64,000 nt of DNA, taken from NCBI GenBank assembly GCA_013151275.1, contig JAADIP010000158.1, positions 1,622 through 65,621 on the forward strand, written 5' to 3'. Source of the stretch: Calditrichota bacterium (lineage in GTDB: Bacteria; Calditrichota; Calditrichia; Calditrichales; Calditrichaceae). How positions within the stretch are numbered: position 1 is the first letter of the stretch; each line of letters starts with the position of its first letter. A program made the position numbers and the translations under genes. The notes below the pieces were generated by a model. The model made no database searches and was not told where the DNA came from. It saw only the letters and a program-made list of their open reading frames with translations. This document shows positions 8,065 through 57,020 of this stretch, in pieces.

Positions 8065-9258
8065 TCAATCATTAAATTTGATTTCGTGATAATCCATGAA
8101 CTTTTTTGCTTCGCTAAAAACATAAGGCAGAATTCGTTTAATCTCTTTTTGGATTTCGTCAAAGGTGACTTCAAAAAATTCCATGCCGTGACTAATCGGA
8201 TCCGCAATCGAAGGATTGGCTAATCTGGATCGGCGGTGCCACTCGCGTAAAAGAACGATTTTATCTTTAAATTGAGGATATTCTTCTCTGAGCGATTCGT
8301 AATGATTTACCGCCAGACAAATAATGAGATCGCTTTCCCGCATAATTTTATCGTCAACCGATCGGGCTTGATGGTGCGACAGATCGATGCCGTGCTTCTG
8401 AGCCACTTCAACCGCAAACGGATGCGCCGCGCCCGAAGCCATGGCAAGCGTACCCGCGGAGCTTACCTTGACGATGTCTTTAAAACGTGTTTTTGAGATG
8501 ATTTCTTCCAGAATTCCCATAGCCATCGGCGAGCGACAGATGTTTCCCGAGCAGATAAAAGTGACCTGAAAATATCTTTTGCGCGTTTTGAACGGAACAT
8601 CCGGCAGCCGCTTTTTAAGCTCGTCCAGAGCAACCGCTCCTTCGCGCAGAACAAGATAGGGTTTTTTGGTAAAATCGATAATCGTGGAGCCGCGGATATC
8701 CGGAACGGGTCCCGCGTCCAAAATCAGGTCGAGACGATCTCCGAACTGGGCGACAACCTCCTGAACATTCCGCGCGTTGGGATTTCCGGTGAGGTTTGCG
8801 CTGGTTGAAGTAACCGGGCTGCCGAGCGAAAGAACAAGCTGTTTGCACACCGGCAATTCCGCTACCCGGAAACCGACCTTTGCCTTTCCGCCGGCTTTTG
8901 TGAATCCGGAAGAAAGGTAGGTTAAGTTTTCTTTAAAACGGCTTTCCACAAGAACCGTAAATTTTCCGGGAAGTAATTTCCGGAAATGTTCGTATTGTTC
9001 TTTGGAAACAACTCCGAACAAATTCGTCAACTGTTCCAGCGAGGCTACCATTAAAGAAACGGGCATAAAAGGACCGCGTTGTTTAATCACAAACAACCGA
9101 TCCAGCGCCTTTTTATTGAAAACATCCACGCCCAGTCCGTAGAGGGTGTTTGTGGGATAGACAATAATCCCGCCCTGTTTAAGAACCTGAACGGCTCGTT
9201 TTATCGCCTTACGGCTCGGCTTATGGGGATCGATTTTATAATATTCCATTTTTCCCAA
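8065..9258 (-). CDS. Fusion: L-threonylcarbamoyladenylate synthase (TsaC/YrdC) + low-molecular-weight protein phosphatase
   Basis: N-half YPTNTLYGLG and STSANLTG (YrdC family); C-half FICSGNICRSPMA (CX5RS P-loop) and IADP general-acid motif; one continuous ORF. Confidence 0.9.
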   Translation of the reverse strand: MGKMEYYKIDPHKPSRKAIKRAVQVLKQGGIIVYPTNTLYGLGVDVFNKKALDRLFVIKQRGPFMPVSLMVASLEQLTNLFGVVSKEQYEHFRKLLPGKFTVLVESRFKENLTYLSSGFTKAGGKAKVGFRVAELPVCKQLVLSLGSPVTSTSANLTGNPNARNVQEVVAQFGDRLDLILDAGPVPDIRGSTIIDFTKKPYLVLREGAVALDELKKRLPDVPFKTRKRYFQVTFICSGNICRSPMAMGILEEIISKTRFKDIVKVSSAGTLAMASGAAHPFAVEVAQKHGIDLSHHQARSVDDKIMRESDLIICLAVNHYESLREEYPQFKDKIVLLREWHRRSRLANPSIADPISHGMEFFEVTFDEIQKEIKRILPYVFSEAKKFMDYHEIKFND

Positions 9259-9363
9259 ATCAAATAATTTGTTTTAAAACATCTGCGTTAAAAAATTTTA
9301 ACGTCCGGCAACCGCCACCATTATACTACGACTTTCTCTTTTTGTTGCCCGGTTATTGTTTTT

Positions 9364-10239
9364 TCAATTCCCGGGCTGCGTTTTCCAGCGGCGATGCACC
9401 CAAAACCATTGTTCCGGATATTTTCGCACCCATTTCTCCAAAGCGGCAGTATGGAGCTGGGTAATGGCAACCACTTTTTCCTGAAGCTTGCCGTTCAGTT
9501 CCGGAACAGTGATCTCTTCCATATAAACGTCAAACAGCGCATAATCGCGCCGGACCGGAATCAATAAAATGATTCTGGCGCCGGTTCGCAGATGCAGAAC
9601 AGCCGTGCCCACAGCCGTGGATGAAGGCAGCCCCAAAAAATCCACAAAAACGCCGCGTTTTCGGGCATCCTGATCAATCGCGATTGCCACGATTTTTTTG
9701 TCTTTTAATAATTTTGTCGCAACCTGCATGGCTTCGTAAGTATAAATAACCGTAAGACCATACCGGCAACGCATCTTATTAACAAAAGCATCAACTTTAA
9801 CGTTACTCTGCTTTTTCGCGATCGCCGCAATAGGAAGTTTCTGCAGGACAAAAGCCTGACCCATCCACTCAAAATTTCCGAAATGTCCCGCAACAAAAAT
9901 TATTCCGCGGTCTCTGTTTTTAACAGACTCCAGAAGTTCCCGATTTTTAATGCGCACCAATTTATCAGCCGTGCGTTCGTTTAAATGATGCATCTGCAGA
10001 AATTCCATCCACAAAAAGACAAAGTTCTTGTAAATCTCGTGCAGAAGAACGCTTTCCTGTTTTGGAAGTTTATCTCCATATACGCGATAAAGATTGTTTA
10101 GAATCACTTTTCGACGGTAACGCAGGATTTTCTCGATAATAAACGTCATAAAAAGAGCAAGACGTTTACCGGTTTTCAGCGAAATGCGACTGAAAATAAA
10201 AAAAAGCATCCGCACCAATATGTATTCAATATTTTTCAT
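9364..10239 (-). CDS. Lipid A biosynthesis acyltransferase (LpxL/HtrB family)
   Basis: GHFGNFEW, IAIDQD, VDFLG and PEQWFWVHRRWK motifs. Confidence 0.9.
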   Translation of the reverse strand: MKNIEYILVRMLFFIFSRISLKTGKRLALFMTFIIEKILRYRRKVILNNLYRVYGDKLPKQESVLLHEIYKNFVFLWMEFLQMHHLNERTADKLVRIKNRELLESVKNRDRGIIFVAGHFGNFEWMGQAFVLQKLPIAAIAKKQSNVKVDAFVNKMRCRYGLTVIYTYEAMQVATKLLKDKKIVAIAIDQDARKRGVFVDFLGLPSSTAVGTAVLHLRTGARIILLIPVRRDYALFDVYMEEITVPELNGKLQEKVVAITQLHTAALEKWVRKYPEQWFWVHRRWKTQPGN

Positions 10240-10358
10240 GGGCAGGAAATTAGTGAATTAGAATATTACAGGCAAATCCATAACTCTTTACGGTTGTAAA
10301 AAAGCGCCTGTTAACCCTAATATATTAGCACTAAAATCCTTATTTTTTTGGAAGAATT

Positions 10359-10514
10359 GGTTAATGGTTAAGGGTTAAGGGTGTAAGGGTTAAGCGGCTT
10401 CTTTAGCGTCTTGCCATGTCAAACCGTCTTCGCTGCTTTCCGCATTTTCCTTTTTCCTTTTTCTTTTGTCTTTTGTCTTTTGTCTTTTATCTTTTATCTT
10501 ACCCATCCCCCATC
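10359..10514 (+). repeat. Intergenic composite heptamer microsatellite: (GGTTAAG)-type array 10359-10393, eight TT(G/A/T)TCTT-like units 10445-10500, two CCCATC-type units
   Basis: Units counted directly: ttttcct ttttcct ttttctt ttgtctt x3 ttatctt x2; ggttaat ggttaag ggttaag ggtgtaag ggttaag. Confidence 0.85.
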
Positions 10515-23297: not shown

Positions 23298-24350
23298 TTG
23301 GACTCCGATTCAAAAAAAGAAAAATTTTTCAATTCGTTTAAACGCGAATACAGGGAAATCAAGAAATTCTATTTAAGCGAGGCTCAGAAGAAAAAACTGC
23401 AGAAAATGCTTTTTCTGCGCCGCTTTTTTGTCTTCAACTTTTTGATATTAAAAGCATTGTACTTAAAACTGCAGAGTACGCGCAGAATCATCTTTTTGCT
23501 GGCTATTTTCTTTCTATTTCAAGCCGATATCTCCTTTACCTATCAAACGTATTCTTACCATTTGCAGCTCCGCTTTTTGTCCGCGGTTCTGCTCCTGTTT
23601 TTACTTCTTTTGGAATTAAAAGATAAATTATTAATCCGCGATGAAATTCTTGCAGCCCGGGCTATTCAAAGCGCGCTCAGTCCCGAGGTACAGCCGAAAA
23701 TCCCGGGATTTGATACTTACCTGTTTTGTCAGCCGGTTAACGAAGTCGGCGGCGACCTGGTCGATTGTATTGCCCTGCCCGATCAATCACACATAATTGC
23801 GCTTGCCGATATTTCGGGGAAAGGGCTGCCCGCCGCGTTATTAATGTCCAAGCTTCAGGGATTCATTCACGCTTTTGCCCGCGATACCCCCTTCGCGAAT
23901 ATGATGGATGTTCTTAATACCAAATTCTACCACACCATTCCCCGGCAATCTTTTGCTTCGCTGATTCTGATTCGTCTTACGGTTGATAATCCGCAAATAC
24001 AAATTCTGAACGCCGGACATCTTCCGCCGCTGCTGGTCACAAAATCGGGAATCGTTTCCCTGAACAAAGGCGGACTGGCTATCGGACTGAGACCCGAAAA
24101 CTCCTATTCTGTTCAGTCTGTTCTGCTGAATCCCGCAGACATTTTTATTGCCTATTCGGACGGTTTAACCGAAGCGTTTGACGACAAAGGAGAGCAATTC
24201 GGCGAAGAACGCTTGATGCAAACGCTTAAAGAGAACCGGTCGCTTACGGCAAACAGGATTGCTGAACGCATTTTGAAAGAGGTAGGCAGTTTTTCGGATG
24301 AGCAATATTTAAAAGACGATCTTTCGCTTATTGTCATCAAAAAGAAATGA
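23298..24350 (+). CDS. Membrane-anchored PP2C/SpoIIE (RsbU-like) phosphatase
   Basis: TTG start after AGGAG; N-terminal hydrophobic helices; EVGGDLVD, LADISGKGLPAALLM, NAGHLPP, YSDGLTEA, DDLS motifs. Confidence 0.9.
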   Translation: MDSDSKKEKFFNSFKREYREIKKFYLSEAQKKKLQKMLFLRRFFVFNFLILKALYLKLQSTRRIIFLLAIFFLFQADISFTYQTYSYHLQLRFLSAVLLLFLLLLELKDKLLIRDEILAARAIQSALSPEVQPKIPGFDTYLFCQPVNEVGGDLVDCIALPDQSHIIALADISGKGLPAALLMSKLQGFIHAFARDTPFANMMDVLNTKFYHTIPRQSFASLILIRLTVDNPQIQILNAGHLPPLLVTKSGIVSLNKGGLAIGLRPENSYSVQSVLLNPADIFIAYSDGLTEAFDDKGEQFGEERLMQTLKENRSLTANRIAERILKEVGSFSDEQYLKDDLSLIVIKKK

Positions 24351-51085: not shown

Positions 51086-53086
51086 TTATTTTTTAGCCTT
51101 ATTCACGTTCTTGCTTACTAAAAAATCCGCCCAGATTATTGTCGCAAGCGCGGGATTAAAATCTTCGATACCCACGGGATTTAAGCGTTCGTTAAAATGC
51201 AGACCCTCCGGAATATAGCCGAGAATTCCCTCATTTACCAGATCGAAAAGAGGGGTGAAATAATTTTTCCATATTTTATCGATTTTATCCGCGTCGTCCG
51301 AATATTTCAGCAGCGCCTGCACATAAAAAATAATTGTCCAGGGCCATACGGCGCCGTTGTAAAAATCAAGTAATTCCGTTGTATCCGAATACTCGTTTTT
51401 CCGATATCCGCTGTCATAAATCGACTGGGAACGCAAACCATAAGGCGTGAGCAATTCTTCTTCGATTCGGGATAGAACCTTTTTGGCAAAAGCATCGTCG
51501 CACACGGAAAAGGGCAAACAAAGAGGAATAATCTGATTAAGTCTGAAATCCTCGTTAGCCGAATCGTGATTGATAAAATCATAAAAAATTATTTTTGATT
51601 TACTGACAAATTTTTTATTAAAACTTTCCCGCACTTTTTCCGCCAGTTGCCGATATTTTGCGGTAAGACGCCGCTTTTTTAATTTTGAACTGAAAAGTTC
51701 CAGAGTTTTTAAGGCGTTATACCAAAGGGCGTTTACTTCTAACAATTTTCCGTAACGATACACCTCATTATTTTCTTTTTTTAACGGGAACCACGAAACA
51801 TTAATCGAACGATCGCCCGCAAAAACAAGTCCGTCTTTTCCGGCATAAATATTAAACGTTGTTCCTTTTAAATAACAATCGACAATCGAGCGAAGTTTTT
51901 CGAATAACTGTCCTTCGATAAATTGCAAATCGCCGGTGATCTTGTAATACAAATAAATTACGTAAATCAGCCATAAGCCCAAATCCGCCTGATTGTACAC
52001 CGGTTTTTCATCTTTTACGGGATAATTGGTGGGAAGCAGCCCGGAATCGAGATAGTTGAGAATATTCAGAATTGTGTTCTTAAAATGCGCGTAATTTTTT
52101 GTCGTGTAAAGGATAGCGGCTAATTCGAGCAAAAAGTGAAGCAGGTTCTTCTGATTATTCATCTGGGAAACAGGGAATTCAAATTTATCTTCGCGAAAAA
52201 GGATGGATCGTTGCAACGATTTCCCTATTGGGGTTACCAAAGGATTACGGGTAGAATAATTGAACAAATTGAGATCGCGACGTTTGGTTTCCCGGTAAAA
52301 TTGTTCTTCAAAATCCAGTTTAAAATCGTCCAGAGAATCGGTGGCAACAAAAAGATCGAATTTTTCGTAAGGCTTTAATTCCACCTGAAAAAAGCCCGGG
52401 TTAAAAAGATCTTCTTTGCTCTGTCCGTATTTTTGAAAATCTTTAGCATAAATAAAGCTGTGATACCACAAAGAAGCCGTAATGAATTCGCCTTTGTCAA
52501 AATAAATGTACAATTCCGGCATTTCGGGTCGCGGCGCCCAGCGGACAAAAGAGTTGCCCAAATAGGTATCGGTGTTCAAACCCTGAATTTCGCGGTTTAA
52601 CAAATCGTTGAAGCGCACGGCAATAAAGGGTTTAATAACCAGAGTAACGGGGCGTCCCTGATTCATTAATTCGTAACGAACAAGTAAAATGTTTTGATGT
52701 TCCAAAAGAAACAATACTTTGCGGATACGACGGTCTTCGATTTTGTAAACAAAGGTGGGAAAAGGATTTAAAGAAAATTTCTCCTGATACTGATAACCGT
52801 GGGGATAAACGCTGTCCTTGTAGCGGTTAGTCGAAATTTCGAACAACCGGTTTTCAATAAAAATAGTCTCTTCAAATTTGGCAAGCGTTACAACTTTTCG
52901 GTCCAACGACGAATGAGGGACCACAAGTAATCCGTGTTCGCGGCGCAGATTCATTCCGGTTACACTTGAACTGGAATAGGCGCCGAGTGCATTTGATTCG
53001 AGCCATTCGTAACGTTGAAACTCATTGATATTATGCAACACATCCTTATGAAATTCCATAATCTTTCCTTCGTCTCCTGTTTTCAT
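51086..53086 (-). CDS. Glycogen debranching enzyme-like protein (GDE_N + amylo-alpha-1,6-glucosidase domain), catalytic motifs degenerate
   Basis: EWLESNALGAYSS, RREHGLL, GKLLEVNALWYNAL, LLTPYGLRS, YNGAVWPW conserved; canonical WGRD and TWMD segments not found. Confidence 0.8.
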   Translation of the reverse strand: MKTGDEGKIMEFHKDVLHNINEFQRYEWLESNALGAYSSSSVTGMNLRREHGLLVVPHSSLDRKVVTLAKFEETIFIENRLFEISTNRYKDSVYPHGYQYQEKFSLNPFPTFVYKIEDRRIRKVLFLLEHQNILLVRYELMNQGRPVTLVIKPFIAVRFNDLLNREIQGLNTDTYLGNSFVRWAPRPEMPELYIYFDKGEFITASLWYHSFIYAKDFQKYGQSKEDLFNPGFFQVELKPYEKFDLFVATDSLDDFKLDFEEQFYRETKRRDLNLFNYSTRNPLVTPIGKSLQRSILFREDKFEFPVSQMNNQKNLLHFLLELAAILYTTKNYAHFKNTILNILNYLDSGLLPTNYPVKDEKPVYNQADLGLWLIYVIYLYYKITGDLQFIEGQLFEKLRSIVDCYLKGTTFNIYAGKDGLVFAGDRSINVSWFPLKKENNEVYRYGKLLEVNALWYNALKTLELFSSKLKKRRLTAKYRQLAEKVRESFNKKFVSKSKIIFYDFINHDSANEDFRLNQIIPLCLPFSVCDDAFAKKVLSRIEEELLTPYGLRSQSIYDSGYRKNEYSDTTELLDFYNGAVWPWTIIFYVQALLKYSDDADKIDKIWKNYFTPLFDLVNEGILGYIPEGLHFNERLNPVGIEDFNPALATIIWADFLVSKNVNKAKK

Positions 53087-53157
53087 TGATTAAATACTAA
53101 CTTAAGTTTTGTGAAAAATAAATTAAAAATCGTGTTTCATGTCAAAGAAAAATTGTT

Positions 53158-54963
53158 TTATTGAGCTCCCTTTCTTTTAATTACGGCAATAAATGTTTCC
53201 CATAATAACCTGAGATAGCCCCTTAAACTGACAACTTCGCGGTACTCGCCCAACCTCTCCTGTTCCAAAGCCGATAAAGAAATCAACGCCGATTGAAAGC
53301 TGTCGTGAAGCGCCCTGTCTTCCGCCGTTAAATCCGATCGTCCTCTTGCCTGCCAGAAACCTGCTAAGCCCAATCGTCCCTGAAAACGGATTCTGGCTAC
53401 CTCCGACATATCGAGATTATCGCTCCTTAAACCCTCCGCCTGCAATATTTCCGCCTCTTGTTTCGGCAACGCCCAAATTCCCACCAGACTCAGATCGCCT
53501 TTTAACACATTGATTAAAAGCGGCAGTTCATCCAGACTTGTTCTTCTTAAAAATCTTCCTACCCGGGTTACCCGCGGATCATTCTCGATTTTCCGATAGG
53601 GTCCCGATTTGTACACATTTTTGTTTTCGGATTCGTTCAGACGATTATCGGCATTCTCGTACATTGTACGAAAAACATAATATTTTACCGATTCTTCTTT
53701 TATATATTGATAGTGATTTTTATCTTTAGATTCAAATTTAGGTCTTTTTAATCTTTCACTAACATAAAACACCGACCCGCGCGAATCCAATTTAATGAGA
53801 ATTGCAATAATTAAAAAGAGCGGTAAAAGCAAAATCAAACCGATCAGCGCGATTGTTTTGTCGATCAAACCGATAAGCAGACGATTTGCCTTAACCTTCA
53901 ACGGTTCTTTTAAATAGTCGCTGATAATAAAATTTTCTTCCACAAACGTGCCGAATAAATTTTTCAGTGAAATGTAGCAATTCTTAGCCACAATCGAATC
54001 TCTCAACTCCACCATTTTGCCGATATAGGTGTTATCCAAAATAATGCTTTGGGTTATCGTTGCGCCGCGATCTATTTTAACGTTGTTTCCTATTATCGCC
54101 GGACCGCGAACGGTAACTTCTTTGCCGATCTCGCAACGGTCGCCGATCAAAATCGGTCCGACGGCGTCCTCCTCAAAATTAGCCTTGATCCTGCAGCCCC
54201 GCCCGATGATAATATCGTCTTTAACGGGTCTCCCCTCGATCCATTCTTTAAAAATTCCCTGTTCCAGCAATTTCAAATTTAGTTTCCAGTAATAATGCAA
54301 AGAAGAGAGGGGTTCAAAAAAACCGTCGGTCTTAATCACATTAATATCGACATTTTTCCGAAGTAAAGCGGAGACCAGGTCTTGCGCTATCGAATTTATA
54401 TTTTTGTCGTCCAAAAAATCCAAAAGATCGGGTTCCAACAAATACAGCCCGGTTAAAAGCAGCGTCTGTTCATTTTCCCTCGATTTTTTAATCCGGTTTA
54501 TTTTCAGCAGCTTTTTGCTTTCCGGATCGTATTGAATTTCAAAATGATTTTTAATCGGATTAAATTCGGCGCAAACCAGCGAAAGCATTTTTTGGGAAGC
54601 CTTATGTTCGGCGACGGCTTTTTCCCAGTTCAAAAAGGTAAAAAAATCGGCGTCGCTAAAAATAAAAGGAGCGTCCAAAGAGCTGCGAATTTTTCGCAGA
54701 CAGCGGAAATCGCCGTATAATTCTTTTTCCAGAGAATACGAAATTTTTACGCCCAACCTTTTTCCGTCCTTAAAATACCGCTCAACCTGTTCCGGAAAAT
54801 TGTGCAGAATTATTTTAATATCTTCGATACCCGCCTTTTTGGCTTGAAGGATGTAATATTCGAGCATCGGACGATTTAACAAAGGCGCCATCGCTTTGGG
54901 AATTAACCGGGTAAGCGGATTCAGAGAGTGATCCACGCCTTTTACGAAAAAAACCGCTTTCAT
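53158..54963 (-). CDS. Fusion: degenerate NDP-sugar pyrophosphorylase-like domain + left-handed beta-helix + bacterial sugar (phosphoglycosyl) transferase domain
   Basis: [24 protein letters not shown]-terminus; hexapeptide repeats ([13 protein letters not shown]...); [20 protein letters not shown]...GDLSLVG. Confidence 0.82.
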
Positions 54964-55514
54964 CCGACATCCTTAAATGATTTTCTGACCTCGAGACAGT
55001 GTCTGTTTTTTTCGTCAAGGATGAACCGGGTTTCATCCATAAACTTCACAATGATCGAAAGTCCCATGCCCCCGGCTGAAATATGTTGAAGAATATCGTC
55101 GAGAGGCATATCTTTGACATTTTTTTTAAACCAGAGCTTTAAAGAACGTTCATTCTCCACATAACCTCTCAGCTCGCCGTCAAGCGTTGTTAAAATCAAA
55201 TGATCGGTGCCTATGAGTTTTTTGGGGTATGGCGGGTAATATCCGTTAATTTTCATTCCCTTCCCCTCATCCGGAAAACGGATTAAAAGCGAGGGTTTTT
55301 GCAGTTCAAAATAAATTGTTACCAACTGATCTTTTGATTTGGGCGTATGTTTTAAGATGTTGACAAACGCCTCATTTACCGTTGATCTCAATTGTCCGGA
55401 CAACAATTCGGGGTCTTTTACCTTGAAATGTTGAATGAGAATATCCACAAAATTCTCAACGGTCGCCAAATATTCCAGATCTGACGGCACGGACAAAATA
55501 ATTTGTTTTTGCAT
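54960..55514 (-). CDS. Anti-sigma factor / Ser kinase (RsbW-like, HATPase_c_2)
   Basis: VPSDLEYL, VNEAFVNILKH N-box, DEGKG G1, GGMGLSII G2; directly downstream of a STAS gene. Confidence 0.85.
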   Translation of the reverse strand: MQKQIILSVPSDLEYLATVENFVDILIQHFKVKDPELLSGQLRSTVNEAFVNILKHTPKSKDQLVTIYFELQKPSLLIRFPDEGKGMKINGYYPPYPKKLIGTDHLILTTLDGELRGYVENERSLKLWFKKNVKDMPLDDILQHISAGGMGLSIIVKFMDETRFILDEKNRHCLEVRKSFKDVG

Positions 55515-55518
55515 GATT

Positions 55519-55854
55519 TTAAAAACTGTTTATTGCGTCTTCCTGTTTATCAAAAATATCAAAAATCCGATAAAGTCTCGTTAATTCAAACATGGCGCGT
55601 ACCGGCGGCTGTAAACCGACGATCTTTAAATCTCCGTTGCGCATTGTCGCTTTTTTTAAGCCAGCCACCAGAGCGCCTAAAAACGAACTGTCCACAAATT
55701 CGCATTCGCTTAAATCCACCACCACATTTGAGGTTTGTTCGTCGATCTTTTTAAGGAGCTCTTCTTTAAGCTGTCCCGAAAATTCAACGGTCGCGCGCTT
55801 CTTGTGAATTTTCGCCACCAGTACCCCGTTTTTCAGATCAAATGAAAATTCCAT
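55519..55854 (-). CDS. STAS-domain anti-anti-sigma factor (RsbV/SpoIIAA-like)
   Basis: VVVDLSECEFVDSSFLGALV with the phospho-acceptor Ser; AGGAG RBS. Confidence 0.92.
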   Translation of the reverse strand: MEFSFDLKNGVLVAKIHKKRATVEFSGQLKEELLKKIDEQTSNVVVDLSECEFVDSSFLGALVAGLKKATMRNGDLKIVGLQPPVRAMFELTRLYRIFDIFDKQEDAINSF

Positions 55855-56099
55855 ATTTGCTCTCCTTTTATCTTATTATTTCGCTTGTCGTTAAAAATCT
55901 TTAACCTGCCGGGATTAAAAATTCCGTTGTTTCCTCATTATTTGCCTTTCCTCTATTTTTAAGAACGAAAGCAGGTTATTGGCGTTCCCCTTGCCGGGAA
56001 CGGAAAACCGACCGACCTTTTTTAAAGAGCAGGCTGCCTTTTTTCGCCCCCCAATAAAGGCGTCTTACTTTTTGCGGACTGCGCTGTTTAGACATCCGC

Positions 56100-57020
56100 T
56101 CATTGCGCTTGCCTAATTTTATCGATCATGGTCTTAAGATAGTACAACGGATTATCCGGTAAATCAATGTTAAAGACGGATTTGAATCTGCTTACGTCTG
56201 CCGTAAATTTTACAACCTCAACCGTTCTGGGAGGATCAACGACAATCTTATTTTTCGTTTTGGTTAATCTCATAATTTGTTCCGCCAGTTCAAAGAGCGT
56301 TGTTCCTTTTCCCGAACCGATATTTGTCGGACCGCCGGGCGCCTCGGTATTGTTCATGGATTCCATCAGCGCGGCAACGACTATTTCGATCGAAACAAAA
56401 TCGATGACCTGTTTGCCGCCGTAAATATGAATATCCCGATGCTTAAACACATTATTTAAAAAGATCGGAATAACCCGGTCGAAATCCCTTTCGCCGTAAA
56501 CATTAGCCAGCCGCAGAATTACAACTTCAAAGTCGTTCATGTTTTGAAAGACCTCGCAATACTTCTCTCCCGCCACCTTACTTGCGCCATAGATATTTTT
56601 TGAAGAGAGGGGGTGTTTTTCATCGACCGGCAGATATTGCGCTTCGCCGTAAGCTTCGCGGGAAGAAGTAAAAATAACCCTTTTTACTCCGGCGGCTTTG
56701 CACGCCTTTAGTACGTTGAATGTTCCGACCACATTTGTTTTAAACGAGTAATTAATATTCTGCACCGCGCCCATCACGTTCGATTGCGCAGCCAGATGAA
56801 AGACAATCTCACAGTCGCGGCAAGCGTCCCGAACCTGCTCGTAAAAACGGATATCTCTATTTAAAAATTCAATCTTTCCTTTTTTCAGATGATTTTTTAT
56901 GTTTTCGATTTTACCTCTGAACAAATTATCCAAAACGCGAACCGAATATCCTGCGCCGACTAAACGATCGACCAGATGGCTCCCGATAAATCCCGCTCCG
57001 CCCGTTACAAGAACCCGCAT
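56100..57020 (-). CDS. NAD-dependent epimerase/dehydratase (UDP-glucose 4-epimerase-like)
   Basis: GGAGFIGSH, FHLAA, TSS, YGASK, LRLANVYG motifs intact. Confidence 0.92.
   Translation of the reverse strand: MRVLVTGGAGFIGSHLVDRLVGAGYSVRVLDNLFRGKIENIKNHLKKGKIEFLNRDIRFYEQVRDACRDCEIVFHLAAQSNVMGAVQNINYSFKTNVVGTFNVLKACKAAGVKRVIFTSSREAYGEAQYLPVDEKHPLSSKNIYGASKVAGEKYCEVFQNMNDFEVVILRLANVYGERDFDRVIPIFLNNVFKHRDIHIYGGKQVIDFVSIEIVVAALMESMNNTEAPGGPTNIGSGKGTTLFELAEQIMRLTKTKNKIVVDPPRTVEVVKFTADVSRFKSVFNIDLPDNPLYYLKTMIDKIRQAQ

Follow-up and report, generated by a model that had tools for sequence, protein, structure and literature searches.

A candidate sigma-less partner switch in a Calditrichota bacterium: a STAS protein, an RsbW-like kinase and a nucleotidyltransferase-phosphoglycosyltransferase fusion

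This study concerns five co-oriented genes at positions 51086-57020 of a 64,000-nucleotide stretch of DNA from a Calditrichota bacterium (assembly GCA_013151275.1, contig JAADIP010000158.1, positions 1,622 to 65,621), referred to below as the window. In order of transcription they encode a sugar epimerase, a free single-domain STAS protein, an RsbW-like serine kinase, a fusion of a sugar-1-phosphate nucleotidyltransferase (NTase) fold, a left-handed beta-helix (LbH) and a monotopic phosphoglycosyl transferase (PGT) domain, and a protein related to glycogen debranching enzyme (GDE). We consider it rather likely that the STAS protein, the kinase and the fusion form a partner switch without a sigma factor, in which STAS acts in trans to gate the priming of glycan synthesis post-translationally. 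We favor this reading because the coupled gene order STAS-kinase-X matches that of rsbV-rsbW-sigB, viewed against precedents in Anabaena, Vibrio and Myxococcus. An earlier note on this DNA, made from the sequence alone, had proposed a STAS/kinase module tied to glycan enzymes, and our results support such a sigma-less module.

In the proposed mechanism, the RsbW-like kinase would phosphorylate STAS on Ser56, and a PP2C phosphatase, encoded away from the locus in this genome and as a REC-PP2C protein in the same operon in Ignavibacteria, would remove the phosphate. The phosphorylation state of STAS would then decide whether the fusion starts a polyprenyl-phosphate-linked glycan, either through docking of free STAS on the fusion or through STAS pulling the kinase off it. 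The fusion, anchored in the membrane, would occupy the sigma factor's place in the gene order, and its pseudo-NTase/LbH half, presumably no longer making NDP-sugar in this lineage, would serve as a cytoplasmic docking or ligand-sensing platform. We infer which proteins make contact, which of them controls which, and whether the PGT half is competent, from the domains, motifs, selection and gene adjacency described below.

RESULTS

STAS protein and kinase

The DSS phosphosite that the earlier note had seen in the STAS protein reads D55-S56-S57, with Ser56 (codon 55687-55689) as the phosphorylatable residue, and is conserved in 24/24 aligned orthologues. Across 16 + 8 orthologues from Calditrichota, Ignavibacteria and Chloroflexota, the DSS/DST motif is near-invariant, as is the C-terminal half, and the protein matches the NCBIfam models TIGR00377/TIGR02886. 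The assignment of the next gene to the RsbW-like kinases also stood, as the N box (NEAFVNILKH), the G1 box (DEGKG) and the G2 box (GGMGLS) are intact. The kinase scores weakly on the RsbW/SpoIIAB models (27 bits for RsbW, where the cut-off is 145), leaving the equivalog cut-offs unmet, and it carries an insert of ~55 amino acids with a PPYP motif between G1 and G2, as seen in an alignment of 11 orthologues plus paralogues. The conserved pattern PPYP..L.G....TLDG at this place marks an insert-bearing sub-family of RsbW-like kinases.

A total of 9 STAS genes and 8 SpoIIE genes are present in the window genome. The PPYP insert recurs in a paralogous kinase encoded on contig C111 (L115:1443-2000), adjoining a HisKA histidine kinase; this paralogue is found in 24/26 genomes of the family, at 48-81% identity, and could serve as a STAS partner where the kinase of the locus is gone. 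The closest paralogue of the window STAS (31%) is a 114-aa STAS protein on contig C21 (L116:461-4723), which follows a GAF-SpoIIE phosphatase and precedes a GH13 sucrose-phosphorylase-like protein whose RLDAV / TETN / DSHD triad is apparently intact. It is thus a second STAS gene in this genome that adjoins an alpha-glucan/sucrose enzyme. In two Ignavibacteria-type loci (L017:2985-3500 and L013:7419-8000), the kinase-like protein between STAS and the fusion has no recognisable G2 box; that of L017 has a deletion and no Pfam match, and that of L013 reads EHYGLY at G2. These two proteins may be pseudokinases that bind only.

Phosphoglycosyl transferase half of the fusion

The PGT half aligns to WbaP (8t53 and other chains) over the catalytic core, and the AlphaFold2 (AF2) model has a helix-break-helix at residues 355-393, corresponding to the re-entrant membrane helix. 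The Asp-Glu dyad, D478-E479, aligns to the DE of WbaP and is invariant in 71/71 members of the fusion family, as defined by an alignment of full-length members from which a maximum-likelihood tree was built. Also retained are the NDPRVT loop, KLDSxG and GxWQxxGRS, and three family-specific inserts are present. The earlier note had described three enzyme domains of the locus as apparently dead; this description holds for the NTase domain and the GDE-like protein and fails for the PGT half, where the dyad is retained.

Two features of the active site depart from the canonical pattern. The Lys of KFR(T/S)M (KFRSM in WbaP), which from its spacing we take to be the equivalent of PglC Lys59, is replaced by V431 in the window and is present in 28/71 members. 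The PRP motif is replaced by IWALP and is found in 3/71 members, all of them outgroup. PglC Lys59 is described as catalytically essential (PMC10541605), and PRP as a nucleotide-binding motif (PMC10186338). A Lys three residues upstream of the KFRTM site is found in 33/43 Val-type members versus 2/28 Lys-type members, and Val-type members also have Tyr, not Lys/Arg, after the Met (site 53671-53685, residues 427-431). Because the loss of the one Lys co-varies with the gain of the upstream Lys, the alignment suggests an active site that has been remodelled rather than one that is dead, and the catalytic Lys may have been relocated in Val-type fusions. We lean slightly towards a PGT half that is still catalytic in the window. 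With its dyad kept, and as the sole Bac_transf gene of Wzx/Wzy EPS operons in Ignavibacteria (below), the fusion probably encodes a priming enzyme that is active, at least under some conditions, rather than a dead domain. In the distant Chloroflexota fusions the PGT halves are plainly dead (DE changed to DL or HR, no NDPR loop), and they stand beside a canonical 251-aa PGT. A scan of genome contigs with the fusion alignment returned mostly ordinary PGTs and just 8 full-length loci, and a literature search found no paper describing the fusion family or its link to STAS.

Nucleotidyltransferase and beta-helix half of the fusion

The consensus of the fusion family is that of a canonical NTase (AAGxGSRL, GTAGA, SGDG, FGVV..FQEKP and W.DIGS), and all five motifs are kept in 24/71 members. 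The window NTase has 0/5 (G-x-G-x-R, GTAGA, the metal-binding GD, EKP and DIG): GDFRC stands in the lost-motif region, GD has become DA, DIG has become EPL (EPLS), and FGVV..EKP is absent. On the maximum-likelihood tree, the window clade (P0001-P0004) sits on a long branch as sister to the canonical clade, and the degenerate group as a whole needs at least 6 label changes, indicating that losses of the NTase motifs recur. The earlier note had named canonical motifs in orthologues as a sign of decay confined to this locus. Such motifs are indeed kept by the NTase of the wider family, and the loss is specific to lineages; the domains themselves are under purifying selection (see below).

The fold is intact, with an AF2 pLDDT of ~90 over residues 1-345 and of 84 for the model of the whole fusion. 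Foldseek matches for the NTase-LbH half include 8x7s (TM 0.79), VTC1/GMPPB, GMPPA, ST0452, AGPase and eIF2B gamma/epsilon, in agreement with the earlier suggestion that this half shares the fold of the regulators GMPPA and eIF2B gamma/epsilon; the enzymes GMPPB and AGPase share it too. The N-domain is just 36-44% identical within one genus. Given that the NTase-LbH half has been kept through repeated loss of its motifs, that the LbH is the most constrained segment of the fusion and that this half outlives the PGT half in one relative (G002, below), it is probably a docking or ligand-binding platform.

Selection

The window genome is labelled G000 and the genomes of its relatives carry other G-numbers. 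Nei-Gojobori dN/dS values were calculated against G008 (95% identical); wider comparisons were saturated in dS and unusable. The values are 0.155 for the epimerase, 0.055 for STAS, 0.071 for the kinase, 0.141, 0.038 and 0.098 for the NTase, LbH and PGT parts of the fusion, and 0.031 and 0.053 for GDE_N and GDE_C. Values this low indicate that none of these genes or domains is a decaying pseudogene. The domains that the earlier note described as full-length despite lost catalytic signatures are thus not decaying, with purifying selection on all of them (dN/dS 0.03-0.16).

The module in Ignavibacteria and Chloroflexota

The architecture recurs widely among Ignavibacteria and extends to Calditrichota and Chloroflexota. 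In 16/16 core-family loci read from Calditrichota and Ignavibacteria, STAS immediately precedes the fusion or is separated from it by the kinase alone, and the outgroup member P0075, which keeps PRP, has no STAS neighbor. The nine Ignavibacteria-type loci (L013, L014, L017-L020 and L125-L127) have an EPS operon that typically encodes, in this order, a REC(-REC)-SpoIIE phosphatase, a membrane GT2 glycosyltransferase, STAS, (kinase), the fusion, RmlA, RmlC, UDP-glucose dehydrogenase, OEP, Wzz/Wzc, glycosyltransferases (GTs) and Wzx; a REC-PP2C gene lies within two genes in 8/9. The Wzx/Wzy pathway requires a priming PGT, and no second Bac_transf gene was found near the fusion in the three Ignavibacteria genomes that were searched whole. 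Since the Wzx/Wzy operon thus has no other Bac_transf gene, we argue that the fusion is catalytically competent in Ignavibacteria.

In two of these loci, both with the STAS-kinase-fusion trio, the genes for RmlC and UDP-glucose dehydrogenase flank one for glycogen phosphorylase (PF00343; L013:11249-13723 and L127:9169-11661), the position of which suggests a supply of glucose-1-phosphate from glycogen. The Chloroflexota locus L021:6816-14157 encodes a small canonical PGT, a GT26 (WecG/TagA)-2xSTAS protein, an NTase-LbH-deadPGT fusion, a free STAS protein, a PP2C phosphatase and a kinase, an arrangement that ties a single partner-switch set to three different proteins of glycan initiation.

The module in the Calditrichota family

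The earlier note had named a lack of conserved gene order among the refuting observations, and the five-gene order is indeed not conserved as a unit in this family, as the kinase and the fusion are variably kept. A single obligate operon-level unit is ruled out by the presence of the locus kinase in 11/26 and of the fusion in 7/26 family genomes, across which STAS is still fully conserved; a genome search at the level of the class found the fusion in just 7/86 genomes. The core of epimerase, STAS and GDE-like protein stands at the same site in 15/15 family loci read, and the epimerase locus is syntenic in G008, G012, G002, G006, G004, G001, G022, G017, G015, G020 and G009. The STAS-kinase-fusion order is retained in G008, G007, G012, G013, G002 and G006. 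The relatives form a graded series: the full set is intact in G000, G008, G007, G012 and G013; in G002, stop codons interrupt the PGT half, which has lost ~350 nt (remnant LIKLESRRTIL), with a 347-codon NTase-LbH open reading frame (ORF) still open (L101, G002:C30, ~8924-10410, minus strand); G004, G001, G014 and G005 have the kinase only; and G022, G017, G015, G020 and G009 have neither. Throughout this series STAS is almost unchanged, including the DSS motif. No fusion remnants were found in the kinase-GDE or STAS-GDE gaps of relatives.

The locus lies outside any exopolysaccharide (EPS) cluster in this family, and the canonical PGT/EPS genes are on another contig. The one canonical PGT of the window genome (232 bits) heads a Wza/Wzc/GT/Wzx cluster on contig C218 (L114:179-13470), where it is followed by a 268-aa STAS-domain protein and then by Wza, a Wzc-like protein, two FemAB-like proteins, an aminotransferase, a GT2 and Wzx. 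We conclude that the module in this family is a trimmed, eroding version. As epimerase, STAS and pseudo-GDE are constant and kinase and fusion optional, STAS must have at least one further partner here, for which the pseudo-GDE and the near-universal paralogous kinase are candidates. Beyond the switch, STAS clearly does something more, connected with the core that all these loci share.

The GDE-like protein

A search of the PDB with the single sequence gave no match, and a 31-sequence profile aligned to human GDE (8zeq). An alignment of 139 homologues was drawn from the best 150 matches in a search of 1.8 billion proteins. In the window protein the conserved GYPWFxDWGRD reads VSQMNNQKNLLH, WGRD having become LLHF (R316L, D317H); the Arg of WGRD is present in 136/139 homologues and the Asp in 126/139. 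TWMD has become SWFP, and D434P removes the general-acid Asp, which is present in 115/139. The general-base Glu627 is kept, is near-invariant in the alignment and aligns to E1502 of human GDE; the Asp of TWMD corresponds to D1261 of human GDE by residue counting on the profile alignment. The catalytic pair D1261/E1502 of human GDE equals D1241/E1492 of CgGDE, and the WGRD Asp equals CgGDE D1078 (ScGDE D1086), which coordinates the leaving glucose; single mutants of CgGDE D1241, E1492 and D1078 abolish glucosidase activity, and the human D1261A/E1502A substitutions greatly reduce it (PMC12219210, PMC4837477).

A subfamily of ~12 clusters (50% identity) shares these losses, and its more distant members have no STAS neighbor. 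In the Calditrichota family, the gene is single-copy in 26/26 genomes and SW(I/F/M)P stands in place of TWMD in 7/7 aligned sequences. The AF2 model is confident (pLDDT 90, pTM 0.90) and consists of a beta-sandwich and an (alpha/alpha)6 barrel. Both the NTase domain and the GDE-like protein thus appear, from their motifs, to be conserved pseudoenzyme-like domains.

Phosphatase candidates

No phosphatase gene is present at the window locus. The earlier note had pointed to the SpoIIE/PP2C gene at 23298 as a possible phosphatase for the switch; this gene is one of the 8 SpoIIE genes of the genome, and the proposal did not hold up, as at least 10 genomes that lack the module have full-length orthologues and G007, which has the module, has none. 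The REC-PAS-GAF-PP2C gene on contig C53 and the GAF-PP2C gene on C21 are near-universal in the family whatever the state of the module and were set aside as uninformative. The distribution of the module is thus matched by 0/3 PP2C candidates tested.

Layout of the locus and neighboring genes

All five genes lie on the minus strand as earlier described, and their domain families were confirmed with Pfam and NCBIfam (Table 1). The spacings were likewise reproduced, with 4 nt between STAS and kinase, an ATGA overlap of the kinase stop codon with the fusion ATG, and 71 nt between fusion and GDE-like gene. The GDE-like ORF may well start at its second ATG (M10, at 53059), since no homologue aligns upstream of residue 10 and a GGAG Shine-Dalgarno-like site precedes M10; this start lies 27 nt further downstream and would widen the gap to 98 nt. 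No signal peptide is evident in the N-terminus of the GDE-like protein. The epimerase is intact as the earlier note had it, with GxxGxxG (GGAGFIGSH) and YxxxK (YGASK) both in the translation, and it reaches none of the NCBIfam equivalog cut-offs. The STAS-kinase-fusion transcription unit probably begins in the 245-nt spacer downstream of it; promoter and terminator scans of the locus gave nothing above chance, and an Rfam scan of the locus and spacer gave no match. No sigma factor is found among the identified neighbors, which are nuoA/B/C/D (by translation), a DUF4296 lipoprotein and a peptidase-PD40-Omp85 group, again in line with the earlier description. The window stretch was not found in any public sequencing run.

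Table 1. Positions of the features discussed, in window coordinates
Feature	Position	Strand	Evidence
NAD-dependent sugar epimerase/dehydratase, 306 aa	56100..57020	-	PF01370 171.8 bits
Spacer, epimerase to STAS, 245 nt	55855..56099	-	from sequence
Single-domain STAS protein, 111 aa	55519..55854	-	PF01740 54.5 bits
RsbW/SpoIIAB-like serine kinase, 184 aa, HATPase_c_2	54960..55514	-	PF13581 36.8 bits
Whole NTase-LbH-PGT fusion, 601 aa	53158..54963	-	PF00483 + LbH + PF02397
Fusion residues 1-240, sugar-1-phosphate nucleotidyltransferase fold (pseudo-NTase)	54244..54963	-	PF00483 54.7 bits (cut-off 21.2)
Fusion residues 241-345, left-handed beta-helix (LbH, hexapeptide)	53929..54243	-	PF25084, PF00132, PF24894
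Fusion residues 346-601, re-entrant membrane helix + monotopic PGT domain	53161..53928	-	PF02397 118.9 bits (cut-off 27)
GDE_N + GDE_C protein, 666 aa	51086..53086	-	PF12439 198 bits, PF06202 201 bits
SpoIIE/PP2C phosphatase, 350 aa	23298..24350	+	PF07228 142 bits

DISCUSSION

Given the evidence presented here, control of glycan priming by a sigma-less partner switch is the reading that we favor, and several observations weigh against it. The PGT half has lost the Lys59-equivalent and the PRP motif; in this family the kinase and the fusion are dispensable beside a fully conserved STAS, the PGT half of G002 is broken, and the locus stands apart from the EPS genes; no phosphatase is encoded at the locus, and no PP2C candidate follows the distribution of the module. 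In addition, the region from nuoA to Omp85 is wholly syntenic, which makes adjacency at the level of the family weak evidence. One alternative, which we regard as possible but doubtful, is a fusion that is a double pseudoenzyme, dead in both halves. It would then only scaffold or regulate, at the membrane, another PGT that is live (here that of contig C218), and would form the output of the STAS switch rather than the enzyme under its control. Such a role would fit V431 and the family-wide lack of PRP, the Chloroflexota relatives with dead PGT halves (DE to DL/HR) beside a live small PGT, the survival of an open NTase-LbH frame in G002 after loss of the PGT half, and the presence, in the main EPS cluster of the window genome, of a canonical PGT (232 bits) with a STAS-domain protein after it. 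However, a DE dyad kept in 71/71 members together with most PGT motifs would be unusual for a pure scaffold, the Ignavibacteria fusion is the sole Bac_transf gene in Wzx/Wzy-type operons, and the loss of the Lys co-varies with the Lys three residues upstream (33/43 versus 2/28). It is also improbable, in our view, that the kinase and the fusion are a marginal relic of an ancestral EPS operon and that the real partners of STAS are elsewhere (the C111 kinase, widely conserved PP2Cs). The graded loss from the full set through PGT decay in G002 and kinase only to neither, the 36-44% identity of the N-domain within one genus and the paralogous kinase in 24/26 genomes (48-81% identity) would all be expected of a relic, but the kinase and the fusion domains have dN/dS values of 0.07 and 0.04-0.14, respectively, between G000 and G008, intact ORFs are found in G000, G008, G007, G012 and G013, and translational coupling has been retained.

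A further possibility, which follows the model of the earlier note and which we judge unlikely, is that pseudo-NTase and pseudo-GDE would act as sensors of sugar nucleotides or alpha-glucans that feed or receive the STAS/kinase switch, linking carbon storage to envelope glycan synthesis. Both domains are confidently modelled and strongly constrained in the absence of catalytic residues, the NTase-LbH fold matches the regulators GMPPA and eIF2B, and STAS and pseudo-GDE are adjacent in 15/15 family loci, even where kinase and fusion are missing; the closest STAS paralogue lies between GAF-PP2C and GH13 sucrose-phosphorylase-like genes, and glycogen phosphorylase is found inside two Ignavibacteria EPS clusters that contain the module. 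Set against this, the degenerate GDE subfamily has more distant members with no STAS gene beside them, the STAS-GDE adjacency may be inherited order, as nuoA and the Omp85-like gene are equally syntenic with no evident functional tie, and sensing by a dead NTase cannot be the general mechanism of a family in which most members keep a canonical NTase. The most elaborate version, which we regard as a long shot, would make STAS a hub, with the pseudo-NTase/LbH reading the supply of nucleotide sugars, the pseudo-GDE reading alpha-glucan reserves, and the kinase alternating between STAS and the fusion in just the way that RsbW does with RsbV and sigma-B. If it were true, NTase-LbH-PGT proteins would be an undescribed class of direct non-sigma partner-switch targets in the FCB group, and carbon storage would be coupled to the first committed step of exopolysaccharide synthesis.

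The partner-switch reading matters in that the throttling of the first, substrate-limited step of surface polysaccharide synthesis has only recently begun to be understood (EpsW-EpsZ in 2025, All4160/HenR in 2026). The locus would add a third architecture, in which STAS is free, the kinase is small and the priming enzyme has an NTase-LbH half, and with it a candidate non-sigma target of partner switching. The fusion family provides a natural series from fully canonical to fully degenerate NTase domains and is thus a tool for asking how enzyme domains become regulatory, and the pseudo-GDE, a core gene of one Calditrichota family that always adjoins STAS, appears to be a second conserved pseudoenzyme.

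Comparison with known systems

The closest parallel is in Anabaena, where the kinase Alr3423 phosphorylates the STAS domain of All4160, the REC-SpoIIE phosphatase HenR reverses this, and Hep polysaccharide is controlled as a result (Harada, Matsuoka & Ehira 2026, PMC13555669, bioRxiv 10.64898/2026.04.08.717354; the Synechocystis homologue is XssP). We read the All4160 glycosyltransferase as PGT-type. As in that system, a STAS domain, an RsbW-type kinase and, in Ignavibacteria, a REC-SpoIIE phosphatase would act on an EPS enzyme post-translationally, with no sigma factor. In contrast to All4160, where STAS is fused in cis, STAS is free here and the N-terminus of the enzyme is NTase-LbH; the window locus lacks a phosphatase, and its PGT-like domain lacks the Lys59-equivalent and PRP. 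In Vibrio fischeri, SypA (STAS) and SypE (kinase-REC-PP2C) control Syp polysaccharide (PMC4517449, PMC10120452). The Ignavibacteria loci resemble this system in having a free single-domain STAS protein within an EPS locus, with proposed gating by its phosphorylation state, and the target of SypA is likewise not a sigma factor; SypE joins kinase and phosphatase in one protein, whereas here the kinase is small and separate, carries the PPYP insert and has the fusion as a constant neighbor. Myxococcus xanthus EpsW activates the initiating PGT EpsZ by direct contact (PMC12802240), with the differences that EpsW is a response regulator rather than a STAS protein and EpsZ a large WbaP-type PGT.

With RsbV-RsbW-SigB and SpoIIAA-SpoIIAB-SigF of Bacillus subtilis, the locus shares the STAS-kinase-target order, coupled genes, the phospho-Ser in D-S-S/T, which is also at position 56 in RsbV, and the N, G1 and G2 boxes. 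It differs from RsbV-RsbW-SigB in that the third gene encodes a membrane glycan enzyme fusion and the kinase has a 55-aa insert. The fusion has the Bac_transf core, re-entrant helix, Asp-Glu dyad and fused sugar-pathway domain of the BiPGT class and of PglC/WbaP. The partners listed for BiPGTs are acetyltransferases or glycosyltransferases (PMC11626204), whereas the partner here is NTase-LbH, for which we found no described case, and the site has Val for the Lys59-equivalent and IWALP for PRP. The NTase-LbH half has the two-domain fold, degenerate signature and conserved length of GMPPA, GlgD and eIF2B gamma/epsilon; those proteins are soluble and form part of hetero-oligomers together with a live paralogue, and here the half is fused to a membrane PGT and the loss is lineage-specific. 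Like the GH133 eukaryotic GDE and the archaeal-type GDE (TIGR01561; PDB 7vma), the GDE-like protein has a GDE_N beta-sandwich, a GDE_C barrel and the base Glu, but unlike GH133 GDE it has Pro for the acid Asp and Leu-His for the Arg-Asp of WGRD, and it scores 294 on TIGR01561 against a cut-off of 364. The kind of system is thus known, and what is new in this version is that STAS is free, that its candidate target is an NTase-LbH-PGT fusion with a remodelled site and that the NTase is degenerate in some lineages.

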